From positions 8,968 to 72,967 of the IMG/VR virus record IMGVR_UViG_3300037455_000250: a DNA stretch of 64,000 nucleotides, one strand, 5' to 3'. Source of the DNA: a virus. Lineage: Duplodnaviria > Caudoviricetes. Each line of letters opens with the position of its first letter. Position 1 is the first letter of the stretch. This document shows, piece by piece, positions 3,850 through 45,971 of the stretch. Both the position numbers and the translations under genes were made by a program. Under the pieces are notes generated by a model that had not been told where the DNA came from, searched no databases, and saw nothing but the letters and a program-made list of their open reading frames with translations.

Positions 3850-4792
3850 CGCAGAACCAGAAGATATAATCACTGAGTTAAGAGCCCAGTTGGCAAAGAG
3901 CGGCATACAAAAGTTTGCGAAGATATTTGATAGTGGGGATGATTTAATGATTTGTTGCCCATATCATAAAGAAGGCCAAGAGCGTAATCCAAGTGCTGGC
4001 ATTAGAAAATCTGACGGACTATTTCACTGTCTTGCTTGTGGTGAAACACACGCATTAACCGAAATGATTAGTGATTGTTTGGGATATAATAACCCAATAT
4101 TAGGATATAAATGGCTGATACAGAATTTTGCAACAACAGAGGTCAGTTCTCGTGGAAAAATTATTGTTAATTATAGAAGGCTCAATAATGATAATGTGCC
4201 TGATATTAGTTCTCCAAAGATAAGTGAAGAAGAATTGGATAATTACCGATATATACACCCGTATCTGTATGAACGTGGTTTAACAGATGAAATTATAGAA
4301 AAGTTTGATATAGGGTATGACAAAGCGACTGACAGTATCACATTTCCTGTGAGAGATAATAATGGCGATTGTATGTTCGTTGCAAGACGGTCTGTTAAGA
4401 CACATCACTTTGATTTGCCTAAAGGCATAACAAAACCATTATATGGTATGTATGAGTTGACACATACAAAAGGGTTCGGAGTTAAATATCCTACAAAGTT
4501 ATATATCTGTGAAGGAACATTCGATTGTTTAAGATTTTGGTGTAATGATAAACTCGCAGTAGCGGGTTTTGGTTGTTTGTTTAATACATATCAGATAAAG
4601 CAAATACAAGATTTGCCGATTAGAACAGTAGTGATTGCCACAGACAACGATAAAGCAGGCTATGAGGCAAATAATAGATTGCGTAAACTATTAACAAACA
4701 AGGTAATCAAAGAAGTTATATGGCCAGAAGGTCGCAAAGACGCGGGCGAATGTACTGATGAAGAAATACAAAATCTCAAGGAGGTTCTATGA
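3824..4792 (+). CDS. dnaG: DNA primase (CHC2 zinc finger + TOPRIM)
   Basis: CCPYH...FHCLAC; ITFPVRD; CEGTFD; TDNDKAG. Confidence 0.9.
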   Translation: MNIDGTIINAEPEDIITELRAQLAKSGIQKFAKIFDSGDDLMICCPYHKEGQERNPSAGIRKSDGLFHCLACGETHALTEMISDCLGYNNPILGYKWLIQNFATTEVSSRGKIIVNYRRLNNDNVPDISSPKISEEELDNYRYIHPYLYERGLTDEIIEKFDIGYDKATDSITFPVRDNNGDCMFVARRSVKTHHFDLPKGITKPLYGMYELTHTKGFGVKYPTKLYICEGTFDCLRFWCNDKLAVAGFGCLFNTYQIKQIQDLPIRTVVIATDNDKAGYEANNRLRKLLTNKVIKEVIWPEGRKDAGECTDEEIQNLKEVL

Positions 4793-5460
4793 TATACACT
4801 TTTTGGGAAGGGTCAATGTCTGGATACATAAAATTGTGTTTAGATACTTGGCGTCAAGAGTTTACACTTTTGAATTATGACAACCTTAATAACTACACTA
4901 ACTTAGATATAAAGGCGTTACAGAATTATACCATTGCTCAAATATCCGATATTGTTCGTGTGCATATATTAAGAGATAACGGTGGATATTGGGTTGACGC
5001 AGATACTATTATGCTTACTGATTATTTGCCCGAAGAAAATATGATAGGTATGCCATCAGATAGAACTGCACATTGTGGGTATCTTCATTTTGATAAGAAC
5101 GCTACTATGCTAAAAGAGTGGGCAGAAAAGCAAGATATGATTATCAGTTCAGGTAGCACGGGTGAATGGGACTTATTTGCAAACTCTCTTTCTGACCCGC
5201 TTGTTAAGAAGTATGATGAAGTTACCATAAAAGACAGGCAATTATATTTTCCCGAAAGTTATATGTCTATTGAAAATAATCCATATTGTCAATACAGAGA
5301 TTTTTATTTTGATAATCATTATCAAGTATCGGATATAAAGCCGACTGAACTGCTTATGTTACACAATTCTTGGACACCATCTTGGTATAAAGATTTAAGT
5401 GAGATAGAGGTACTAACTAAAACAAGAACAATGTCAAATATATTAAAGGAGGTTTTATGA
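4789..5460 (+). CDS. GT32/capsular-polysaccharide-synthesis-like glycosyltransferase
   Basis: IYTFWEG, CLDTW, SDIVRVHILRDNGGYWVDAD (DXD). Confidence 0.75.
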   Translation: MIYTFWEGSMSGYIKLCLDTWRQEFTLLNYDNLNNYTNLDIKALQNYTIAQISDIVRVHILRDNGGYWVDADTIMLTDYLPEENMIGMPSDRTAHCGYLHFDKNATMLKEWAEKQDMIISSGSTGEWDLFANSLSDPLVKKYDEVTIKDRQLYFPESYMSIENNPYCQYRDFYFDNHYQVSDIKPTELLMLHNSWTPSWYKDLSEIEVLTKTRTMSNILKEVL

Positions 5461-6116
5461 GATACATAATTATGTGTGGTGGCAAGTATCATCAATGGAA
5501 AAAACCGAGACAACTCACACGAATATTTGGTGAAACACTTATTGAGCGTACAACTCGATTATTGAAGATGTGTGGAGTTAGTGGTCACGATATTTGGGTT
5601 AGTACATCTAATGCAGAAATGGTGCGTTCAATATTGCAAGAAGTGCCACATACACACATTGTGGTACACAATAATCCTTTTGAAGTGATTAGTCCGAGTA
5701 TTATTACTGGATATTGGTGTGACTGTTTTTATCCAATGACAGAGCCGTGTACTTATATAATGGGTGATGTTGTATTTTCAGAAAAAGCCATAGAAACGAT
5801 TGTTAAGACAGAAACTACCGATATTGAGTTTTTTGCGTCAGCGCCGCCATTTACTAAACAGTATTCAAAAGAGTGGGCAGAGCCTTTTGCTTTTAAGGTA
5901 TTTGACCAAGAACACTTGAAGTCTGCACAACTCAAAACAAAACAATTATGGGATGAACACAAATTTAATCGACACCCTATTGCGTGGGAGTTTTGGCAAG
6001 TAGTGAAAGATACACCACTAAATCAGATAGATTATACTAATTACACAGTTATTAATGATTATACCTGTGACATAGATAAGCCAGAAGATATTAAATACTT
6101 TGAAGGAGTAATGTAA
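5457..6116 (+). CDS. GT-A-fold nucleotidyltransferase-like protein (LicC/MobA-like)
   Basis: IIMCGG...KPRQL...GETLIERT N-terminus; IMGDVVF; C-terminal DIDKPED. Confidence 0.7.
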   Translation: MRYIIMCGGKYHQWKKPRQLTRIFGETLIERTTRLLKMCGVSGHDIWVSTSNAEMVRSILQEVPHTHIVVHNNPFEVISPSIITGYWCDCFYPMTEPCTYIMGDVVFSEKAIETIVKTETTDIEFFASAPPFTKQYSKEWAEPFAFKVFDQEHLKSAQLKTKQLWDEHKFNRHPIAWEFWQVVKDTPLNQIDYTNYTVINDYTCDIDKPEDIKYFEGVM

Positions 6117-6337
6117 TGATTAGGCGCAGAGTAGTTGAGTGTGATGTTTGTGGGGAAGAAGTTGGGGCTAATTCATATAAGATAATCAGAGCAAAGGATA
6201 TATTAAATTGTTGGGATGACCCTGTATTTGTTTTTTCAGATAAGTATATTCTTTGTGGAGATTGTGAGTATCGGATTAAACGCATAACAAAACGAATGAA
6301 AAATATTATAAATACTAAAGAGAAAGGAAAACGCTAA
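6116..6337 (+). CDS. small Zn-finger protein
   Basis: CDVC...CGDC; overlapping start/stop coupling. Confidence 0.65.
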   Translation: MIRRRVVECDVCGEEVGANSYKIIRAKDILNCWDDPVFVFSDKYILCGDCEYRIKRITKRMKNIINTKEKGKR

Positions 6338-7026
6338 TGGCATACTATTTAATTCATACTTGCAACCAACGATTTTGGTATGTAAAAGAGTATTTAATCC
6401 CGTCTATGATGTTACAAGGCATTCCAGCAGATAATATATTTGTCTATCGGGATTATAACGAGATTGGAAATCTAAGGGCATTCATTGATAGTTGTAATAA
6501 GAATGTTCAACAGTGCGAGAAGAATGGCATTAGCGGAGTTTGGCACTTACAAGATGATATAATTGTCAGTAATGACTTTGCACAAAAGACACAGTTATAT
6601 GATAACGGATTAGTTTGTGGGTTTACTTGTGCTTACGATAAACAACCAGAAGAGGGTTTCTTTCAGTTATATCAACAAAAGATGTGGTATAGTTTTCCGT
6701 GTATGCGAATACCAACAAGCGTGTTAAGAGCGTTCGTTGATTGGGCAAATGTAAATCTATGGCAAAGTAAATATTTTAAGTCGTGGGTTAAGAGAAACAA
6801 AGCAGATGATATGATTTTCAAAGAATGGCTATATGATAACTATCCAGATATGACACATCATAATCTTGCCCCAAACATTGTAAATCACATTGATAAGTAT
6901 TTAGGTGGTTCTGTTGTAAATACACAAAGAGATAAAGACCAAGATACTATGTCAATCTTTTGGGAAGACAACGGAGAGTTACAGAATGTAATGAAGTTCT
7001 TGCTTGACAGAAAACAGAATATTTAG
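6337..7026 (+). CDS. putative GT-A glycosyltransferase
   Basis: GNLRAF...HLQDDIIVS acidic motif, SFPC, PNIVNHID. Confidence 0.55.
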   Translation: MAYYLIHTCNQRFWYVKEYLIPSMMLQGIPADNIFVYRDYNEIGNLRAFIDSCNKNVQQCEKNGISGVWHLQDDIIVSNDFAQKTQLYDNGLVCGFTCAYDKQPEEGFFQLYQQKMWYSFPCMRIPTSVLRAFVDWANVNLWQSKYFKSWVKRNKADDMIFKEWLYDNYPDMTHHNLAPNIVNHIDKYLGGSVVNTQRDKDQDTMSIFWEDNGELQNVMKFLLDRKQNI

Positions 7027-7085: not shown

Positions 7086-7766
7086 ATGGGCAGATTAACA
7101 GGCGACAACATTGAACAGTTTAGGAGTTACTCAGGTGACGGTTCAAACAACAGACGCAAATTTTTATCTCTTAAAGATAAGGGTTCAACCGCAAGAGGTA
7201 GAATTGTTTGTGAGAAAGCAGAAGATGTTGAGTGCTATGTAGTTCACAGAGTAAAAGTTGGTGACTACGAAAGAGAAGTAAATTGCTTGTATGAGCAGGG
7301 CGGTTCTATCGAAGATTGTCCGTTCTGCAAAGCAAAGTTAGACAGGTCAGCAAAGATTTATATCCCATTCTTTGACGAGGCAGATGGAGAAATTAAGATT
7401 TTTGAAAGACCTAACAGTTTTTACAGTAAGATTTCAAGTTATTGTTCCCGTTTCGCACCTATCGTTTCGTATGATATAGAGATTGTACGCAATCACGAAA
7501 AGGACAGTAAGAAACCCGATTTTGATATTTTCCCTGGTAAGTCAGATGGAGCAACTGTTGAGGATATTCTGGATGACGCAGGTGTTGAAGAATTGCCAAA
7601 GATTTTAGGTGTATATGTTCTTGACAAAACCGCAGATGATATGGAATATTATCTCGAACACAACGAGTTTCCAGAAACAAGAAGTGAAGATACTCCTATA
7701 AGACGAGGAAGTTCATCAGAAGAAGAAAGACCCCGTAGAAGAGGACGCAGTGGAGATAGGTTCTAA
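7086..7766 (+). CDS. gp32-like single-stranded DNA-binding protein
   Basis: FLSLKDKG, VVHRV, NCL...CPFC Zn motif, YDIEIVR; charged tail; immediately upstream of the polymerase. Confidence 0.7.
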   Translation: MGRLTGDNIEQFRSYSGDGSNNRRKFLSLKDKGSTARGRIVCEKAEDVECYVVHRVKVGDYEREVNCLYEQGGSIEDCPFCKAKLDRSAKIYIPFFDEADGEIKIFERPNSFYSKISSYCSRFAPIVSYDIEIVRNHEKDSKKPDFDIFPGKSDGATVEDILDDAGVEELPKILGVYVLDKTADDMEYYLEHNEFPETRSEDTPIRRGSSSEEERPRRRGRSGDRF

Positions 7767-10066
7767 TGTCACAGTTGTCTTTGTTCGGCGATAGGTTTGA
7801 CAAAGAAACCGATTTAGAAATCGCAAAACAATCTAAACAGAAGTCCAAGAGAAATGCCGTTACTGTAAAAGGTAACGGCATACTTGACAAGATAGCAATT
7901 ATTAGGAACAATGTCGAGAACGCACTTGGCAAATATAAAGACAGATATGTTTGTATTCAAGATATGGACACTTTGCGTAAATACATTGATACCTGTTTAG
8001 ATGATGGCAGAATTGCATTAGATACAGAAACGACAGGACTTAATGTATTCAAAGATAAGATAGTTGGTATATGTCTTAAATCAAAGAGCAATAAAGGAGC
8101 ATACATACCAATTAACCATGTTTCATATAACATAGCAGATAATACATTTACTCGTATTGATACCCAATTAACGATTGAGCAAGTAAGGCCTGAATTGAAA
8201 AGACTTGCCGAAAATATCAAAGAGGTTGATATGTTTAACTCATTCTTTGATAAGAGAGTAATCAAGCACAATTTTGGGCTTTACTTCCCTTGTACTTGGG
8301 AGTGTTCTATCGGAGCAAAGATACTTAATGAGAATATGAACGAGAAGGACTATAACTTAAAGTTCCAACATTCTTACTATGTTCTTAACGGCGAGGAAGA
8401 CGAGTTTAGATTTGGTGATTTGTTTAATGATATAGGGTTTGATAAATGTCCTATTGATTGTGCGACCATATATGGTGGGCATGACGCCGATGATACATTT
8501 GAGTTGTCAGATTTTCAGCGTGAGCATATCTATTATGAGCCGGATTGCACATTTGCAGATAGAAACGGAATGAATGGTGCGTCTTGGTGTTTCTTTAACA
8601 TTGAAATGCCGTGTGTTGACGCAACAATCGAACTTGAAGAAAACGGCATAGCACTTGACCTAAACTATCAAAAAGAATTATCAGAGAGATACAATAAAAA
8701 AGCAAAGGAAATACTTGATAGATTTAGTACAGAGTTAGAGCCATATAATGAGCAGTTAGACGCATTAAGACGGCAAGGTGTTAAACTCGATAATCCTATA
8801 AATATAGGCAGTCCAAAGCAGTTAGCAGTATTACTATATGATGTGCTTAATGTAGGTGTTATAGAGAAGAAAAGTCCGAGGGGTACAGGAGAAGAAATCT
8901 TAACAAAGATTGATAACCCTATTGTTAAAACTATTCTTGATTATCGTAGTGTTCAAAAACTTATAGGCACATATATTGATAAATTGCCTACTTGTCTTGA
9001 AGATGATGGAAGAATACACGCACAGTTTCATCAATATGGTGCGAGAACTGGTAGATTTAGTTCAAGTAATCCAAATTTACAAAATATTCCATCACACAAC
9101 AGAGATATTAGACCTATGTTTGTTGCAAGTCCAAATCATTTATTGATTTCTATGGACTACTCACAACAAGAGCCTTCGTGTCTTGCCGCTTTCTGTAAAA
9201 AGATGGGTTACGATAATCTGTTTAATGCACGATTTAAGGGAAATGACTTATACAGTGAGGTTGCAAGTGCTATCTTTAATCTTCCTTATGATGATTGTGT
9301 TGAGCATAGAGCAGACGGCACGATTAATAAAGAAGGTAAAGCAAGACGAAATGACGCTAAACCAGTTCTGTTAGGTATCTTATACGATAGAGGTGATGAT
9401 AGCGTTGCAGAGGCACTACACATAACATTAGAGCAAGCCAGACAACTTAAACGCAATCTGTATAAGAGATTTCCAGAGATACTTAAATTTGAGCAAGAGA
9501 GTGTCAGAATGGCGCAAGAGTTTGGTTATGTTGATACGATTTGTGGTCGTAAGTGTCGTATACCAGATATGATGTTAGATGATTATGACTTTAAGTGGAT
9601 TGACGCACCAAAAACTGATGATGTGCTTGATTTTGATGGTGATATTGTTGATGAAGTTCCAGACGAAATCTGTGATAAGTATTGGAACAGACTTCATCAA
9701 AAGTATGCAAAGAAAAGAGAAATCTTTGAAGAGGCAAATAAGAAAGACGGAATATGGATTATTGATAACACATTCAAGATAGCAGAGGCTACGAGAAAGT
9801 GTGTTAATTCTCGTATTCAAGGCAGTGCGGCAGACCTTACAAAGAAAGCAATGGCAGAAGTTCTTAAATGTAATCGACTGACAGAGTTAGGTTTCAAGTT
9901 ACTTATCCAAGTACACGACGAACTTATTGGAGAATGTCCAGAAGAAAATATTAAAGAATGTTCAAAGTTATTAGCAGAGGTAATGTCAAAGGCCGCAGAA
10001 GAACTTATCGGTATGCCGTTTAGTTGTGATGCAGAAATTACAAAAGCGTGGTACGGATTAGATTAA
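7766..10066 (+). CDS. polA: family A DNA polymerase with 3'-5' exonuclease
   Basis: ExoI DTETTG; TGRFSSSNPNLQNIP; motif A DYSQQE; motif B RNDAKPVLLGILY; NSRIQGSAAD; motif C QVHDEL; N-terminal QLSLF. Confidence 0.95.
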   Translation: MSQLSLFGDRFDKETDLEIAKQSKQKSKRNAVTVKGNGILDKIAIIRNNVENALGKYKDRYVCIQDMDTLRKYIDTCLDDGRIALDTETTGLNVFKDKIVGICLKSKSNKGAYIPINHVSYNIADNTFTRIDTQLTIEQVRPELKRLAENIKEVDMFNSFFDKRVIKHNFGLYFPCTWECSIGAKILNENMNEKDYNLKFQHSYYVLNGEEDEFRFGDLFNDIGFDKCPIDCATIYGGHDADDTFELSDFQREHIYYEPDCTFADRNGMNGASWCFFNIEMPCVDATIELEENGIALDLNYQKELSERYNKKAKEILDRFSTELEPYNEQLDALRRQGVKLDNPINIGSPKQLAVLLYDVLNVGVIEKKSPRGTGEEILTKIDNPIVKTILDYRSVQKLIGTYIDKLPTCLEDDGRIHAQFHQYGARTGRFSSSNPNLQNIPSHNRDIRPMFVASPNHLLISMDYSQQEPSCLAAFCKKMGYDNLFNARFKGNDLYSEVASAIFNLPYDDCVEHRADGTINKEGKARRNDAKPVLLGILYDRGDDSVAEALHITLEQARQLKRNLYKRFPEILKFEQESVRMAQEFGYVDTICGRKCRIPDMMLDDYDFKWIDAPKTDDVLDFDGDIVDEVPDEICDKYWNRLHQKYAKKREIFEEANKKDGIWIIDNTFKIAEATRKCVNSRIQGSAADLTKKAMAEVLKCNRLTELGFKLLIQVHDELIGECPEENIKECSKLLAEVMSKAAEELIGMPFSCDAEITKAWYGLD

Positions 10067-10144
10067 TTTACAAAAAGTTTACAGTTAAACATTATAATAA
10101 ATGTTATAATAAAGTATAGATAGAGTACGAGTGAGGTATATTAT

Positions 10145-11350
10145 ATGACAAGACGAATAGCGATAATTAATCCTGTTGGAGTAGAAGGCGGTGGCGCAAC
10201 AACTTTATGTGTGCAATATGCAGGATTAGGTATAGATTGTTGGATGAAAAATACCGTAGATTACGCAAACTCAATCGTAGCGACAATACCAAATATCAAG
10301 CCATATTCAACAGATAATGATTTGTTAGATATTGCAACGAAGTATGATAGGTTATTATTTGTAAATATGTGGTTTGGGCATACTATGCCCGATAATGTAA
10401 TAGATAATGTAATTAAGTTACGAAAAAATTATCCTAATTTAGAGATTTGCTATATACATTGTTGTAGAGGATTAGGTGATTTATATACTTTATTACCAGT
10501 TTGTCAGCAACATAATTTTATGTTTGATTATATTTTTTCTTTACATCCTCAAATTACTTCTTTTCCATATTGTAAATCAGTGTTTATGAATATTAATGCG
10601 TGTATTTTGCCTGATTATTCACCATTAAGTGTTAATGAGAGAAATAATATTGTATTCACATCTGGTAGAGTAGAGGGGTTTAAAGGAGTAGTTAAATATT
10701 TTAATTCTATTGATGATGATTTTTTGGCCTCAACAGGAAAGTTTACGTATATACACGAAGGTGCAAAATATTCACATCATAAGAATAATGATGGAATAAG
10801 TTGTCCACCTCAAATGCTTTCAATATTTGACACAACAACGTCTCCGAAATCACTTAAACCACAGTATGTATTACGTGATTATGGGCAAGAGCCTTTGTGT
10901 GATAAATTTAATATTTATCCGTCTTATGATATGCGTTTTATACGTGATAGATGGAAACATTATTTTGCTGGTATTTGTTGTGTTCTCGGAACAACAAGCG
11001 GATATATGGTGGAGCAGACATTATTTGGCACAGAATATAAAATCAAGGATAAGCGAGAGAGAACATTAATAGATAAGCGTACAAATGATTGGGGAGATAC
11101 CTTAGAGTACGCAGACATTGAAAAAATGTCATTTGGTGTACCAGTATTTTTTTCTCGTAAGTTCTCGCAGATAATTGGGTTTACAGATGAGAGGTTAATA
11201 TACAATTCGTTTTCAGAGATACCGGAAAAGGTAAAGTTATTACACACGTATTATGATGATGTGCGAGAGGCACAGTATACGTGGTTACACGAAAAGTTAC
11301 AGAATGTAAATGCAACGATTTTAGAAAAGTTTACAGGAGATATAAACTAA
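10145..11350 (+). CDS. T4 AGT-like GT-B DNA glycosyltransferase
   Basis: 401 aa; GVEGGGAT, SGRVEGFKG and TLEYADIEKMSFGVPVFF resemble T4 alpha-glucosyltransferase motifs as recalled from memory. Confidence 0.7.
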   Translation: MTRRIAIINPVGVEGGGATTLCVQYAGLGIDCWMKNTVDYANSIVATIPNIKPYSTDNDLLDIATKYDRLLFVNMWFGHTMPDNVIDNVIKLRKNYPNLEICYIHCCRGLGDLYTLLPVCQQHNFMFDYIFSLHPQITSFPYCKSVFMNINACILPDYSPLSVNERNNIVFTSGRVEGFKGVVKYFNSIDDDFLASTGKFTYIHEGAKYSHHKNNDGISCPPQMLSIFDTTTSPKSLKPQYVLRDYGQEPLCDKFNIYPSYDMRFIRDRWKHYFAGICCVLGTTSGYMVEQTLFGTEYKIKDKRERTLIDKRTNDWGDTLEYADIEKMSFGVPVFFSRKFSQIIGFTDERLIYNSFSEIPEKVKLLHTYYDDVREAQYTWLHEKLQNVNATILEKFTGDIN

Positions 11351-12201
11351 TGCGTAATGATTTTGCCGTTTTCATTATAACTCACGGACGTCCTGATAAA
11401 CAACTTACATATGATACCTTGCGTAGATGTGGATATAATGGTAAAATTTATCTTGTAGTAGATAATACGGACAATACAATACAACAACACATAGATAAAT
11501 ATGGCGCAGAAAATATCATTGTGTTCGATAAGAACCATTATATAAATTCAGACAGATTTGATAATGGAACAGAGGGTGTTTTTGCGTGTGCCGTTTATGC
11601 AAGACGAGCAGTGGAAGATATAGCAAAAAGTATGAAGTTGGCATACTTTTGTATGATAGATGATGATGTTACCGATTTATGTCTAAGGATTCCATTAGAA
11701 AACAAAGTACGCAGATTAAAAATATATAATATGGATGAAATATTTAATGCGTATTTAGAGTTGTTAGAGATAAAACAAATTAGTTGTCTTGGTTTTGGCT
11801 ATCAAACTCTTTATTTTTCTGGTATGAAGTATTTTACAACAGATTTTAGGCCATTACCTTTTAGACTATTCATAAGAAAAACATCAGTAGATATTGATTG
11901 GTCTAATTGGTATGGTGAAGATGAGATTGCAGGATATCAAAGCAATATAAAAGGTCTATTATGGACTGCTATACCATTAGTTATGGTGACAACATCAGAA
12001 GAGGCTACAGGCGCTATGCAAACAACATATGAACAAACAACCTCTTTTTTACGTTCAATAGTTGAGTTAAGGTATGTTCCATCACAAGTAGTAATTGCGA
12101 CTTGTACGAGAGGTAAAAAGAAAGGAACACAACATCTATATAGAAGAAATCAAGATTGGTTTCCTAAAATCATAAGTAGCACGTATAAAAAGGAGATATG
12201 A
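11350..12201 (+). CDS. TAGT/GREB1-like GT-A glycosyltransferase 1
   Basis: FAVFIITHGRP, YLVVD, YARR, MIDDD, GEDE; start moved to ATG 11350. Confidence 0.8.
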   Translation: MRNDFAVFIITHGRPDKQLTYDTLRRCGYNGKIYLVVDNTDNTIQQHIDKYGAENIIVFDKNHYINSDRFDNGTEGVFACAVYARRAVEDIAKSMKLAYFCMIDDDVTDLCLRIPLENKVRRLKIYNMDEIFNAYLELLEIKQISCLGFGYQTLYFSGMKYFTTDFRPLPFRLFIRKTSVDIDWSNWYGEDEIAGYQSNIKGLLWTAIPLVMVTTSEEATGAMQTTYEQTTSFLRSIVELRYVPSQVVIATCTRGKKKGTQHLYRRNQDWFPKIISSTYKKEI

Positions 12202-12599
12202 ATATGCAGTTAGAGTTTTTTAACACACCAGAGGTAGATAGCAACAACAAGTACACAAAAAAGATTGCAATTCCACAGTATGTGCCTTCTGAGGTTGCAC
12301 CCACATTAAACGAACTCTGTAATTTATCAAAATATTCCGAATTGTTACGAGATATAAAATCTTCAAATGTAACAGAGGAAGAAAAAGAGTTTTTAATACG
12401 TGCGGCTACACGACACATTGTATTTAATTATGCGAAAATAGCGGATTATTATGCACACGCAACACCTGAAATGCAAAAACTTATGGAGAAATCTGCGTTA
12501 GTTATTATTGATTATGAGGATGCAATAGCAAATGGTTATGTGAAATTAAGTAGCACGATAAAGTCAATCATAGAGGAAACAAACAAAAATGAGAACTGA
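12198..12599 (+). CDS. small helical protein associated with TAGT-like genes
   Basis: coupled between the two TAGT-like genes; FNYAKIADYYAH...LVIIDYEDAIANG; N-terminal QLEFF. Confidence 0.65.
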   Translation: MNMQLEFFNTPEVDSNNKYTKKIAIPQYVPSEVAPTLNELCNLSKYSELLRDIKSSNVTEEEKEFLIRAATRHIVFNYAKIADYYAHATPEMQKLMEKSALVIIDYEDAIANGYVKLSSTIKSIIEETNKNEN

Positions 12600-13455
12600 T
12601 TTTGCAGTATTCGTTTTAAGTCACGGCAGAGCAAAAAGTCTTAAAACAATTAATTCTTTATTGTCGAGAGGGTATACTGGTAGATGGTATATTATTGTTG
12701 ATGATGAGGATGACCAAATATCGTTGTATCAACAAAATTTTGGGGAAGACCATATAATTGTGTTTGATAAGAAAGAAGTCGGCAAAACATTCGATATAAT
12801 GGATAATTTTGAAGGTCGACAAGTGCCGACTTTTGCTCGAAATGCGGTGTACGATATAGCAGATAATCTTGGGTTAAAATACTTTTATGAGGCAGATGAT
12901 GATTTAGTATGCTTTAGAGCAAGATTATTAGACAGTGAGGGTGTATTACGTACAGTCTATTTTAATGATATGGATAAAGTGTTTTCTGCATATCTTGATT
13001 ATATGGATAATGCAGAACGTATAGATGTATTAGCGTTTGGACAAACTGGAGATTTAATCGGCGGAAGTGGCTCAAAACTTTTTATAAAAGGATATATTAG
13101 AAAAGCCATGCAGGGATTTATTGTACGTGTGTCGAGTAGAATAACATATGTAGGAAGATTTAATGATGATGTTAATGCGTATGTTGACGCGGGTAAAATA
13201 GGTTATTTGTTCATTACATATAAAGATGTGATAATGGACACAATAGAAACACAGAAAAGCAAAGGCGGTATAACGGAAAATTATAAGAAATATGGTACCT
13301 ATGTTAAGTCTTTTTATTCTGTAATATTAGACCCGAGTTGTGTATTTATAAGCACAATGGGCTTTGGTAATTATAGAATACATCATCAGATAGATTGGGA
13401 AAAAGCGGTGCCTAAAATAATAAGTAGCGATTTTAAGAAAGGAGAGGCAGAATGA
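12589..13455 (+). CDS. TAGT/GREB1-like GT-A glycosyltransferase 2
   Basis: FAVFVLSHGRA, YIIVDD, FARN, EADDD, GRFNDDV, QKSKGG, YVKSFYS, HHQIDW. Confidence 0.85.
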   Translation: MRTDFAVFVLSHGRAKSLKTINSLLSRGYTGRWYIIVDDEDDQISLYQQNFGEDHIIVFDKKEVGKTFDIMDNFEGRQVPTFARNAVYDIADNLGLKYFYEADDDLVCFRARLLDSEGVLRTVYFNDMDKVFSAYLDYMDNAERIDVLAFGQTGDLIGGSGSKLFIKGYIRKAMQGFIVRVSSRITYVGRFNDDVNAYVDAGKIGYLFITYKDVIMDTIETQKSKGGITENYKKYGTYVKSFYSVILDPSCVFISTMGFGNYRIHHQIDWEKAVPKIISSDFKKGEAE

Positions 13456-14192
13456 AAGTAGGATTGTTCCCTATGGTAGCAGATGTATTACACGCCGGTC
13501 ATATACTCGCTATCAAAGAGGCAAAAGCAAACTGTGATTACCTTATAGTTGCGTTATATTGTAAACCTAAGAGAAAACCAAATATTGTGCAGAGTATCTT
13601 TGAGAGATATACTCAACTATCCGCAATCAAATTTGTTGATGAAGTGATGCCTTACGAAGATGAAGAGGATGTTTATAGGGTGTTGCTCTCTATTAAATTT
13701 GATGTATATTTTCTCGGCGCAGATTACAAGAATAAACGATTTGAAGGACAAGACCTCGTTGAAAATTTAGGCAAAGAAATTTATTACTTATCCCGTAATC
13801 ACACAATGAGTAGTTCCAAATTAAAATCAGATATTATTAAAAATGGCGCAAAACAAGAAACGAAAGATAAAGTTATTGCGGTTGATTTTGATGGGTGTAT
13901 TTGTAGTATGAATTATCCTGATATAGGAGAGCCTAATTGGGATGTAATCAATGCTCTTAAACAAGAAAAAGAGAACGGCGCAAAAATCATTTTATGGTCT
14001 TGTCGTGCTGATGAATATTTACGTGCGGCGATAGAGGCGTGTGATGAATGGGGATTACAGTTTGACGCAGTAAATGAAAACGTACCAGAAAGATTAGTTA
14101 AGTATGGATATTCCGATTCTCGAAAGGTTAGTGCTGACGAGTATTGGGACGATTTAGCAAAAGTTATTAAATTTAAAGGAGGACAGAATTAA
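13452..14192 (+). CDS. TagD-like cytidylyltransferase fused to a HAD-family phosphatase domain
   Basis: DVLHAGH (HxGH), FERY, GADY, SSSKLK; second domain VIAVDFDG...LWSCRA...DEYWDD. Confidence 0.85.
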   Translation: MKVGLFPMVADVLHAGHILAIKEAKANCDYLIVALYCKPKRKPNIVQSIFERYTQLSAIKFVDEVMPYEDEEDVYRVLLSIKFDVYFLGADYKNKRFEGQDLVENLGKEIYYLSRNHTMSSSKLKSDIIKNGAKQETKDKVIAVDFDGCICSMNYPDIGEPNWDVINALKQEKENGAKIILWSCRADEYLRAAIEACDEWGLQFDAVNENVPERLVKYGYSDSRKVSADEYWDDLAKVIKFKGGQN

Positions 14193-15268
14193 TGTCGACA
14201 TTTACAACAGAGAGGTTAAAGCAGTTAGTAGCGTATGTGATTAAGGGAGCAGGGTTCAAACCTAACTTTGAATTATCTGATAAAATCGGTATACGAGTTA
14301 GAGATGGTGTCTTGTACTTAAATACAACAGATGGTACAAATTATTTGAGTGTATCAGATAGGTGTGTGTCGGATAATTTCGATATTGTAGTAAATGCAGA
14401 GGTATTTTCAAAACTCATTGGTAAGATTACATCAGAAACCGTAGATATTATTGTTGTTGATGATACAAAACTTGAAGTAACCGGTAATGGTAAATATACA
14501 CTTGAACTTGTGCCAAGTGAGAGCGGTGAATTACTTTCATTTCCTGATAAATTTCCTGAAAATACAGTTGAAAAAGGAACAATATCTGCAAGTGATATAG
14601 TTGCAATAAATACCACTCTTAGTGCGTCACTGTCAAATAAAATCGGCAGTATCTATACAAACTATTATTTTGGTGAAGTCGTTGCAAGTACAGACCGTGC
14701 TATGATGGCAATTTTCAATCGTAAATTAGTAGATGATGTATACCTGTTTAATAAAGAATTTGTTGAACTAATGACATTGAGTGGTGCAGAGGTTTCTATA
14801 TCACAGAATGATAATGTAATTGTGGCAGAAAGTTCAATTAGTGAACACGGCTCAATTCGTGTTTGCACTATACTTCCAACAGATGTTGATAAGTTTGAGA
14901 TTGATGGCATTCGTAAGTTTGTATCTATGGAACTAACATCATTCTGTCGTATTCGTAAAGCAGAAATATTGGCTCTCCTTGATAGACTTTCACTGTTTGT
15001 AAGTGATAAGTTTGATGATGGTGCAATCATTCTTAATTTTAAGAAAGAATATGTTGAGGTTTCATCATTAGCAAGTAGCGGTGTTGAGCGTATCGAATAC
15101 ACCGAGTGTAAAGAGCCGATTGAATTGCAAATCAAGATTAATATTGATAGACTGCGTGACCAGTTAAAGTCATATACATCTGATATGGTAGATTTGTATT
15201 ACGGTAGTGATTTGTGTATTAAACTCGTTGATGGAGATATGACACAGTTAATCGCTTTAATGAAGTAA
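14192..15268 (+). CDS. dnaN: DNA polymerase III beta-like sliding clamp
   Basis: 358 aa; LYLNTTDG, ASTDRAMMA, KINIDRLRDQL and C-terminal LIALMK parallel DnaN; clamp loader encoded downstream. Confidence 0.75.
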   Translation: MSTFTTERLKQLVAYVIKGAGFKPNFELSDKIGIRVRDGVLYLNTTDGTNYLSVSDRCVSDNFDIVVNAEVFSKLIGKITSETVDIIVVDDTKLEVTGNGKYTLELVPSESGELLSFPDKFPENTVEKGTISASDIVAINTTLSASLSNKIGSIYTNYYFGEVVASTDRAMMAIFNRKLVDDVYLFNKEFVELMTLSGAEVSISQNDNVIVAESSISEHGSIRVCTILPTDVDKFEIDGIRKFVSMELTSFCRIRKAEILALLDRLSLFVSDKFDDGAIILNFKKEYVEVSSLASSGVERIEYTECKEPIELQIKINIDRLRDQLKSYTSDMVDLYYGSDLCIKLVDGDMTQLIALMK

Positions 15269-15291
15269 AGATAACAAACAAAACATTTATG

Positions 15292-15320
15292 TAGGGACTT
15301 GAAATATAGTCCCTATTTTT
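15292..15320 (+). terminator. intrinsic terminator
   Basis: TAGGGACT/AGTCCCTA stem followed by TTTTT. Confidence 0.85.
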
Positions 15321-45353: not shown

Positions 45354-45971
45354 ATGAGCGAACATCTTAACTTACTTACTATGGCATTTGACGGTGTTGG
45401 CGAATACAGAATACCGCAAATTAAGCCCGTTACTGAACTCTATGTGAAAGATTGGATAGGGTTTAACTTCGTTGCGACAACAAAAAAGCAACGAGAAACA
45501 ACTGGAATACACTTTTATATAGACGATTATCAATTTGAGCGTGTTTGGAACTATCCGTGGCGATACTCAAAGACATTTAAAGAATTTGGTGCGATAATGG
45601 CACCAAATTTCTCAACTTATCTTGATTTTCCTAAAGCGGTACGTATATTTAATCAGTATAGGTCATACTGGTGTGGTGCTTATTGGCAAGAAATGGGGGC
45701 TATTGTTATACCCTCTGTTGAATGGGGATTGCCTGAGGATTATGATTGGTGTTTTGACGGTGCGCCAGAAGGCGGAATTGTAGCAGTTTCAAATGTAGGA
45801 TGTATGCGAGATAAAGAGGCAAGACAGGTTTTTATGGATGGATATAAGGAAATGCTTATTCGACTACAACCAAAAGAAGTATTAATGTTTGGTCATTTAT
45901 TTGACGATTATCCAGGTCCTGTGCATTATATTAAGTATCAACAAGCAAAAGGCACACAAGGAGACGAATAA
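45354..45971 (+). CDS. DUF4417-family protein
   Basis: HFYIDDYQFERVWNYP, PNFSTYLDFP, YWQEMG..VIPSVEW, FDGAP. Confidence 0.85.
   Translation: MSEHLNLLTMAFDGVGEYRIPQIKPVTELYVKDWIGFNFVATTKKQRETTGIHFYIDDYQFERVWNYPWRYSKTFKEFGAIMAPNFSTYLDFPKAVRIFNQYRSYWCGAYWQEMGAIVIPSVEWGLPEDYDWCFDGAPEGGIVAVSNVGCMRDKEARQVFMDGYKEMLIRLQPKEVLMFGHLFDDYPGPVHYIKYQQAKGTQGDE

Follow-up and report, generated by a model that had tools for sequence, protein, structure and literature searches.

A divergent relative of T4 DNA alpha-glucosyltransferase among the replication genes of a Bacillota-type siphophage

Glycosylation of phage DNA is a major strategy against restriction and CRISPR systems, and the enzymes involved are a source of tools for epigenetic mapping. 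In this report, we describe a glycosyltransferase gene from an uncultured tailed phage, IMG/VR virus record IMGVR_UViG_3300037455_000250. The window that we analyzed is a stretch of 64,000 nucleotides (nt), positions 8968-72967 of this 72,967-bp record, which CheckV rates as 100% complete. The gene occupies positions 10145..11350 on the + strand (coordinates without a locus name refer to the window) and encodes a GT-B glycosyltransferase of 401 amino acids (aa). It shares ancestry with the DNA alpha-glucosyltransferase (AGT) of phage T4 (CAZy family GT72, Pfam family AGT) and belongs to a separate, previously unannotated clade. We refer to its product as the AGT-like protein.

The AGT-like gene and its kinship with T4 AGT

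The gene is preceded by a Shine-Dalgarno-like GAGGT at 10133..10137 (+), read from the sequence 7 nt 5' of the ATG. Its family is rare, with 38 representatives among 1.84 billion proteins. Because 35 homologues, all metagenomic and unnamed, are conserved along the full length (36-63% identity), we consider the gene to be real.

A first-pass annotation, made by a model from the sequence, had pointed to a 401-aa open reading frame (ORF) with four segments resembling parts of T4 AGT. The ORF at 10145..11350 does contain RIAIINPVGVEGGGATT, SGRVEGFKG, TLEYADIEKMSFGVPVFF and YDDVREAQYTWL. The four T4 segments quoted for comparison all prove literally correct and in the same order: the a-gt gene of the T4 reference genome (NC_000866, 16628-17827, - strand) encodes RICIFMARGLEGCGVTK, IGRTTTWKG, SLEYTHLELGACGTIPVFW and YDREREKAYEFL. 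BLASTP aligns T4 AGT (400 aa) end to end with the ORF (401 aa) at 21% identity, and BLASTP and hhalign both show the four segments to be colinear. The pairwise signal is weak, with an E-value of 0.003 for this single comparison, and when the AGT-like family is compared with the lone T4 AGT sequence, hhalign returns a probability of only 21%. Taken alone, the motif match is a lead rather than a proof and does not appear convincingly above chance; the kinship becomes significant through profiles and structure.

Conventional sequence searches do not recover this kinship. With hmmscan, the ORF matches no Pfam family at E<=1, including PF11440 (the AGT family) and PF00534/PF13692, and scans of the PHROG and NCBIfam libraries returned no match. 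No match was obtained when the protein was compared by tblastn with 50,697 deposited phages. Searches of PDB sequences with phmmer and with a narrow profile, A1 (an alignment of the protein with its close relatives), yielded no AGT match and chance matches only (ficin, plasmoredoxin). We attribute this last failure to the blindness of sequence methods and do not count it as evidence against kinship with AGT.

Structural comparison gives a clear answer. An AlphaFold2 model based on A1 (pLDDT 92.1, pTM 0.89) was compared with the PDB by using Foldseek, which places nine T4 AGT chains on top (E 1.2e-14 to 3.2e-12, TM 0.62-0.69), followed by T4 beta-glucosyltransferase (BGT; ~1e-9) and generic GT-B enzymes (~1e-7). 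VIA-align superimposes the model on AGT with a Z-score of 28.2-28.7 and a root mean square deviation (rmsd) of 3.0-3.1 A over 330-338 residues, and the next families are TarM (Z 21.6) and T4 BGT (Z 19.1). Among the nearest clusters in the ESM Atlas is one that consists entirely (100%) of PF11440 proteins (TM 0.75 both ways), and the nearest named matches in BFVD are the 'DNA alpha-glucosyltransferase' of an uncultured siphovirus and that of cyanophage S-TIM5. The AGT-like label thus holds: T4 AGT leads all other structures clearly, and the refuting outcome named in the first-pass annotation, a non-DNA GT-B enzyme as the best match, did not occur.

Broader profiles agree with the structures. 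When A1 is aligned by hhalign with A3, a 36-member profile of the AGT family, the probability is 95.9% (E 6.5e-9, 343 columns). With profile A2, in which A1 is broadened with distant relatives, an hmmsearch of the PDB returns AGT as the only significant match (E 4.8e-10). One of these distant relatives, P0055, itself passes the gathering cut-off of the Pfam AGT model (29.2 bits versus 25). In the comparison with AGT by hidden Markov models, as proposed in the first-pass annotation, the profile-profile alignment is positive, and PF11440, which is present in all 93 true T4 AGT relatives, does not match the ORF itself. Some distant intermediates have a PF00534-type match (P0058, 8.7e-11), which shows, at the level of sequence, the wider kinship of GT-B families. 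On the combined evidence, we regard it as almost certain that the AGT-like protein is a homologue of T4 AGT.

In a quick maximum-likelihood tree (SH-aLRT support; a careful search was not finished), canonical AGTs (99) stand apart from the AGT-like core (98), with a long branch between them, and the core is nested in a grade of intermediates. The AGT-like clade is a distinct lineage and not a member of PF11440. One intermediate, P0047, is represented by two tandem 409-aa genes (L019 6772-9230) in a 392-kb contig that may come from a jumbo phage or from a cell.

We used the profile alignment to find, in the AGT-like family, the counterparts of residues that never vary among AGTs. Many are kept: G10 and G15 of T4 AGT correspond to G12 and G17, G203-R204 to G174-R175, K209-G210 to K180-G181, E232-G233 to E205-G206, R283 to R269, E306-Y307 to E321-Y322, E311 to E326, and G316 and P319 to G331 and P333. 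The kept residues of the C-terminal domain are those that we take to bind the nucleotide diphosphate and ribose in retaining GT-B enzymes. Others are changed, with C106-C107-R108 in place of H114-D115-H116 and D324 in place of H309, and R46, S82, P84, R123 and N124 have no counterpart. C106 is present in 33 of 34 sequences, and R108 does not vary, even in A2, the broad alignment. The replaced triplet is the HD.H motif shared with retaining enzymes of the glycogen synthase/OtsA type, and by analogy with other retaining GT-B enzymes, it should contact the glucose. The nucleotide-sugar site therefore appears AGT-like, and the part of the cleft that is expected to face the sugar or acceptor does not. 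Given the change of HDH to C-x-R and of H309 to D324, the donor, the acceptor or the mechanism may differ from that of T4 AGT. The invariant arginine in place of HD.H suggests a different donor or acceptor, and such a difference could widen the enzymatic toolbox. The equivalence with T4 AGT put forward in the first-pass annotation thus stands for fold and homology, but not for PF11440 membership or for the otherwise invariant HDH motif.

The AGT-like family also conserves C-domain segments of its own, namely AGVCCILGT, an invariant E305 and LIY. In addition, C102, C106, C278 and C279 are invariant or nearly so in the AGT-like core and not in canonical AGT; these cysteines may form a metal or redox site.

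Neighboring genes and related loci

The AGT-like gene lies in a co-directional string of replication genes that starts with an initiator, a DnaC-like loader, DnaB and a primase. These are followed by a GT32-like DXD glycosyltransferase (4789-5460, +; PF05704/PF04488), a MobA/LicC-like nucleotidyltransferase (5457-6116, +; PF12804), a 229-aa ORF (6337-7026), SSB and a family A DNA polymerase, PolA (7766..10066, +; PF00476, PF01612), which is immediately upstream of the AGT-like gene. On the 3' side of this gene are a first paralogue of the GT-A glycosyltransferase TAGT (TAGT1), a small gene that we call p133, a second TAGT paralogue (TAGT2), a gene fusion, and a phage DnaN-type beta sliding clamp (14192..15268, +), which closes the co-directional string. 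The clamp has a weak PF00712 match and is conserved in relatives and in the cultured phage phiCTP1. Genes for a clamp loader, a Cas4-like exonuclease, RecU and RecA lie 3' of it. A consensus scan detected a terminator-like hairpin at 15291..15316 (+), which is the sole + strand one between the AGT-like gene and the clamp end. Counts of such sites, like those of promoter-like sites, were not above those in shuffled sequences.

Both TAGT paralogues are supported by PF20691 and by phrog_842: TAGT1 (11350..12201, +) with E-values of 3.6e-22 and 5e-26, and TAGT2 (12589..13455, +) with 1.9e-27 and 6e-52. The label of phrog_842, 'beta-glucosyl-HMC-alpha-glucosyltransferase', denotes the T2/T6 enzyme that extends glucosylated 5-hydroxymethylcytosine (hmC) on DNA. 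In these phages, TAGT adds the second glucose to glucosyl-hmC (PMC13216743, PMC13390438). The longest ORF of TAGT1 starts with a GTG at 11281, and an alternative ATG at 11350 is preceded by a GGAG ribosome-binding site. From this ATG, the protein begins with MRNDFAVF, like the MRTDFAVF of TAGT2, and the start codon overlaps the stop codon of the AGT-like gene (TAATG). Judging from these features, the ATG at 11350 is most probably the true start, and the overlap would couple translation of the two genes.

The fusion gene (13452..14192, +; PF01467) joins a nucleotidyltransferase resembling TagD and HldE domain II to a HAD phosphatase. It matches the NCBIfam models rfaE_dom_II, g3p_cytidyltrns and HAD BT0820, all under the equivalog cut-offs. 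The encoded protein probably produces an activated donor, either a sugar or a polyol.

The p133 gene (12198..12599, +) encodes the best-conserved member of the module, with a mean column identity of 66% among 12 orthologues. Its match to the ParB-like family phrog_620 is weak. At least 4657 longer proteins (~240-260 aa) share 50-62% identity with almost the whole of p133, and nearly all of them bear an N-terminal ParB_N domain (PF02195). The alignment (A8) of p133 with these fusions shows that p133 is a stand-alone version of their linker and C-terminal domain, without the nucleotide-binding domain (NBD) of ParB_N. In the three loci that we examined, which represent two fusion proteins (L022 7001-8597, L023 7001-8597 and L024 7001-10378), a TAGT gene directly follows the fusion gene; in L024, the fusion gene is followed by two TAGT genes and a radical SAM gene. 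All three are temperate-type siphophage regions, and no AGT, ThyS or TET gene was called near the fusions. Such ParB-TAGT units may be what surveys call a 'solitary' TAGT. ParB homologues of hypermodification clusters are composed of an NBD, a linker and a C-terminal domain, and they activate the cognate DNA-modifying enzyme on double-stranded DNA; activation by ParB176 required both halves (PMC13229309). Elsewhere in the window, between the large terminase and portal genes, a DUF4417 protein is encoded (45354-45971, 181 bits). In phages, this domain is often fused to ParB-CTPase folds (bioRxiv 10.1101/2025.10.10.680097).

The arrangement around the AGT-like gene is shared by 14 related loci. 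Wherever the contig reaches that far, they keep the order SSB, PolA, AGT-like gene, p133, TAGT, clamp, Cas4 and RecU, and in every locus the AGT-like gene lies between PolA and the beta-clamp gene. The minimal module (in L015) consists of the AGT-like gene, p133 and TAGT. TAGT2 is the copy that is conserved in nearly all relatives, and TAGT1 is found only in this genome and in L011. The GT32-like gene is confined to this genome, and the MobA-like gene and the 229-aa ORF are shared with L010. The accessory genes come in two versions: either p133 and TAGT are separated by a radical SAM gene (~322 aa), or TAGT is followed by the gene for a cytidylyltransferase-type enzyme. Radical SAM ORFs of ~321-329 aa follow p133 in L003 (11567-12535), L010, L013, L014 and L016, and none of the relatives carries both a radical SAM gene and a TagD/HldE-like nucleotidyltransferase gene; L015 has neither. 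In L005 (6782-10008) and L015, PolA is divided between two ORFs that flank a GIY-YIG homing-endonuclease gene. In L015, the PolA parts are 538 and 303 aa long, and an unannotated 232-aa ORF lies beside the GIY-YIG gene.

Cultured phage phiCTP1 has the same backbone but three other genes in the slot between PolA and the clamp. These genes (gp50-52) were considered as homologues of the module and rejected, since they are not homologous. One of them, gp51 (L017 9928-10827), annotated as 'hypothetical protein', is an N6/N4 DNA methyltransferase (PF01555, 49 bits), and we therefore regard the slot as one that carries DNA-modification cargo. The N-terminus of PolA in the window, MSQLSLF, reads as a clamp-binding-type motif. 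In gp51, the N-terminus is MKNRLFDF, with an R-L-F tip as in most p133 orthologues, and a tip shared by gp51, p133 and PolA may be a clamp-tether motif. For p133, a clamp-binding role of its N-terminal M-x-x-L-F tip is weakened by its alignment with the interdomain linker of the ParB_N fusions.

The first-pass annotation had assigned the DNA to a siphophage of Bacillota, which is reasonable, more specifically of Clostridia type. PolA is closest to those of Clostridium phages phiCTP1 and FA88 and Streptococcus phage Dp-1 (~40% identity), and the genome encodes a terminase, portal, capsid and a 1394-aa tape-measure protein. Judging from the PolA relatives, the hosts are probably anaerobes, perhaps anaerobic Clostridia. 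Upstream of the window (genome bases 5846-6283), the cassette after an SH3_3 endolysin gene encodes a protein with a BclA C-terminal (exosporium-type) domain, which is consistent with a spore-forming Bacillota host.

The acceptor and the proposed function

Thymidylate synthase (TS)-type hydroxymethylases make hmC and 5-hydroxymethyluracil (hmU), and 5mYOX enzymes oxidize T or 5-methylcytosine (5mC). TS-type hydroxylases, in turn, make 5-hydroxycytosine (PMC13326640). From the searches that follow, all three known sources of glycosylatable pyrimidines appear unaccounted for here. In six-frame searches of the whole genome, no Thymidylat_synt (PF00303), Thy1 (PF02511) or C5 DNA_methylase (PF00145) was detected, with controls responding, and none was detected for Tet_JBP (PF12851), a model without a positive control. 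The PF02511 and PF00145 searches covered the phage's own genome. Thymidylat_synt was also absent from relatives that are 90-100% complete, one of which has terminal repeats, and neither PF12851 nor 2OG-FeII_Oxy_3 (PF13640) was found in four genomes even at E<=10. Permissive scans of mid-size unannotated ORFs revealed no oxygenase, methyltransferase or TS-like enzyme. Likewise, the general Pfam and PHROG scans of ORFs picked up no dCTPase, dUTPase or dNMP kinase, no search having been aimed at these families. We considered the 229-aa ORF as the missing base-activating enzyme and rejected it: it has no family match, L003 and L005 carry non-homologous genes (16-18% identity) in that place, and a homologue appears in L010 alone. 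If the hosts are anaerobic Clostridia, a dioxygenase that depends on O2 would not be expected in any case. It has also been reported that phage 5mYOX enzymes can escape PF12851 (PMC13229309).

Among the intermediates of the family, the neighborhoods of P0044, P0047, P0051 and P0054 contain no base-activating genes that we could find. In L004 (8583-11699), P0055, the link to Pfam AGT, is flanked by genes for a ThyX-like protein (332 aa) and a dUTPase, with a nucleoside deoxyribosyltransferase and HD hydrolases encoded nearby. This pyrimidine-nucleotide context could supply a modified base in that phage.

We propose that the most likely function of the module is post-replicative glycosylation of the phage's own DNA, to which we assign a probability of roughly 60%. 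The AGT-like enzyme would be expressed from the replication operon along with p133 and one or two TAGTs, and would put the first sugar on a base, by analogy with T2 and T6, in which the alpha-glucosyltransferase primes and TAGT extends. The TAGTs and the extra GT32-like enzyme of this genome would then lengthen the glycan, with sugar donors made in part by the two phage nucleotidyltransferases. The purpose would presumably be evasion of restriction. A DNA substrate is supported by the kinship with AGT, the coupling to TAGTs, a partner that derives from ParB, a gene position that is always between polymerase and clamp, and the methyltransferase in the same slot of phiCTP1. Clusters of several glycosyltransferases that build hexose, N-acetylhexosamine and heptose glycans on phage DNA have been established experimentally, and they occur in metaviromes (bioRxiv 10.1101/2023.12.21.572611).

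Several observations weigh against this proposal. No base-making enzyme was found in the 72,967-bp genome or in relatives that are 90-100% complete, and the general ORF scans turned up none of the dCTPase, dUTPase and dNMP kinase functions. About 65% of phage glycosyltransferase contigs lack a nearby ThyS or 5mYOX gene, and such contigs are, according to Pyle et al., less obviously DNA-directed (bioRxiv 10.1101/2023.12.21.572611). With the altered HDH motif and the change of H309 to D324, donor, acceptor or mechanism may differ. By sequence, the neighboring nucleotidyltransferases resemble donor enzymes for teichoic acid or heptose, and for the modeled structure, the second-best fold family is the teichoic-acid glycosyltransferase TarM. 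Finally, GT-A enzymes prime the base in TET-type clusters, and by that analogy the AGT-like GT-B enzyme might be an extender.

Some of these points bear on whether the acceptor is DNA at all. The target of the AGT-like enzyme might be a host glycopolymer that it remodels, such as wall teichoic acid or capsule, or a protein that it glycosylates. Its partners would be the TagD/HldE-like and LicC/MobA-like nucleotidyltransferases as well as the GT32-like enzyme; the benefit could be, for example, a block to superinfection or progeny that do not adsorb to debris. The lack of a detected base-activating enzyme in complete genomes, the high proportion of phage glycosyltransferase contigs without ThyS or 5mYOX, and the similarity of accessory genes to glycerol-3-phosphate cytidylyltransferase and heptose adenylyltransferase would all fit, as would the second place of TarM, a teichoic-acid alpha-GlcNAc transferase (Z 21.6). 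Moreover, GT-A phage DNA glycosyltransferases resemble the prophage teichoic-acid glycosyltransferase TarP (bioRxiv 10.1101/2023.12.21.572611). Nonetheless, AGT scores 7 Z units above TarM, and the conserved core comprises only the AGT-like gene, p133 and TAGT, the sugar-donor genes being variable accessories. The core includes no signal peptide or membrane gene, and it always lies between PolA and the clamp, the slot that holds a DNA methyltransferase in phiCTP1. The derivation of p133 from DNA-associated ParB-type proteins (PMC13229309) likewise argues for DNA, and we therefore consider a non-DNA acceptor unlikely. Should it prove correct, enzymes of the AGT and TAGT types would have been recruited to other substrates. 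Calculated pI and net charge did not separate DNA from non-DNA glycosyltransferases.

If DNA is the acceptor, the roles within the module might still be reversed, with a TAGT-type GT-A enzyme, helped by p133, making the first transfer, and the AGT-like enzyme extending or branching the DNA-linked glycan. Modules of ParB_N-p133 and TAGT without an AGT-like gene exist (L022-L024), so that the AGT-like gene can be viewed as a clade-specific addition to a ParB-TAGT unit, and JGT-like GT-A phage enzymes prime 5hmC directly (bioRxiv 10.1101/2023.12.21.572611). Yet the sole characterized AGT primes the base and the sole characterized TAGT extends (PMC13216743), and the AGT-like gene comes first in order and is missing from no member of the clade, not even from L015 with its minimal module. 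A reversal of roles is therefore quite improbable in our estimation. Still less probable is the function implied by the first-pass annotation if it is taken literally, in which the enzyme, like T4 AGT, would use UDP-glucose to attach glucose in alpha linkage to hmC in phage DNA. Fold, length, colinear motifs and conserved diphosphate- and ribose-binding residues are the same, and the pairing with TAGT is as in T2 and T6 (PMC13216743). However, the searches of the phage's own genome revealed no TS-type dCMP hydroxymethylase, no ThyX and no route through a C5-methyltransferase and TET/JBP, and the dCTPase and dNMP kinase of a T4-like pathway did not turn up in the general ORF scans. In addition, HDH is replaced by C-x-R and PF11440 does not match. 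A T4-like pathway is probably not the source of the acceptor.

Returning to glycosylation of the phage's own DNA, a more specific and speculative possibility is that the AGT-like enzyme, NBD-less p133 and TAGT act without a TS-type hydroxymethylase or hydroxylase and without an O2-dependent TET/JBP dioxygenase. The sugar might then be attached to a canonical base or to the backbone, or the acceptor might come from an unrecognized enzyme that needs no oxygen; in some relatives, the radical SAM protein is a possible candidate. We consider this doubtful, but if true, it would amount to a new chemistry of DNA glycosylation that is characteristic of phages infecting anaerobic Bacillota and would explain part of the many 'solitary TAGT' phages. 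More generally, a strictly conserved three-gene core in genomes that lack a known route to hmC, hmU or 5-hydroxycytosine offers a defined and clonable case for finding the acceptors of orphan glycosyltransferases.

Comparison with known systems

T4 AGT (GT72; PF11440; PDB 1XV5, 1Y6F, 1Y8Z) is the closest known system. The two proteins share the GT-B fold and the same length, and no structure matches the model better than AGT (Z 28.7, rmsd 3.1 A, 336 residues). The N-terminal Gly loop, GR..KG, EG, E-x4-E and the G..P loop of AGT are conserved in the AGT-like protein. In both cases, the gene lies among replication genes, and a TAGT co-occurs, as in T2 and T6. T4 AGT binds the sliding clamp gp45 (Sommer 2004, PMC13216743). 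In contrast, the AGT-like protein is only 15-21% identical to AGT and forms a separate clade on a long branch, with C-x-R for HDH, D for H309, and segments of its own (AGVCCILGT, E305). The setting also differs, with no hydroxymethylase found, a Bacillota-type siphovirus as the carrier and p133 as an obligatory neighbor. The first-pass annotation had called this context unexpected, which was overstated: divergent AGT homologues are already annotated in cyanophage S-TIM5, in uncultured siphoviruses and, outside the T-even phages, in Bacillus phage G as gp306 (PMC6024577; also PMC13216743).

The pair of alpha-glucosyltransferase and TAGT in T2 and T6 is similar in that a GT-B enzyme is encoded beside a PF20691 GT-A enzyme, which suggests a primer and an extender. 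The locus described here differs by having two TAGT paralogues and a gene for a ParB-type domain protein between them. 'Solitary' TAGTs, without a recognizable alpha- or beta-glucosyltransferase, have been reported in 288 of 753 glycosyltransferase-bearing phages (PMC13216743). Members of the AGT-like clade would be scored as such in surveys based on PSI-BLAST or Pfam, because their GT-B partner is too divergent. Standard annotation with Pfam, PHROG, NCBIfam and PSI-BLAST-type surveys is thus blind to this lineage, and phages that seem to have TAGT only may hold a priming GT-B enzyme.

Clusters of 5mYOX, ParB and glycosyltransferase genes (PMC8256090, PMC13229309, bioRxiv 10.1101/2023.12.21.572611) resemble the module in having a TAGT-type glycosyltransferase, a ParB-derived partner, extra glycosyltransferases and sugar-nucleotide enzymes, possibly a heptose-type donor, and polymerase and clamp genes nearby. 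Unlike in these clusters, no 5mYOX or C5-methyltransferase was found here, the ParB partner is the C-terminal half only, the GT-B enzyme is like AGT and not like a beta-glucosyltransferase, and the hosts are probably anaerobes. The GT4-type transferases TarM, PimA, BshA and HepE also have the GT-B fold (Z ~19-21), an E-x-n-E-type motif in the C-terminal domain, and Arg/Lys phosphate binders. However, their structural match is weaker than that of AGT, PF00534 is not detected in the AGT-like ORF, and the gene has a replication setting rather than one of envelope biosynthesis.

Phage DNA glycosyltransferases, pairs of AGT and TAGT, ParB-associated hypermodification clusters and multi-sugar DNA glycans are already known. 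What the present locus adds is an arrangement in which no known base-activating enzyme was found in complete genomes, an unannotated AGT-related clade with a changed active-site motif, and an obligatory coupling of the AGT-like gene to an NBD-less ParB-type protein and a TAGT.

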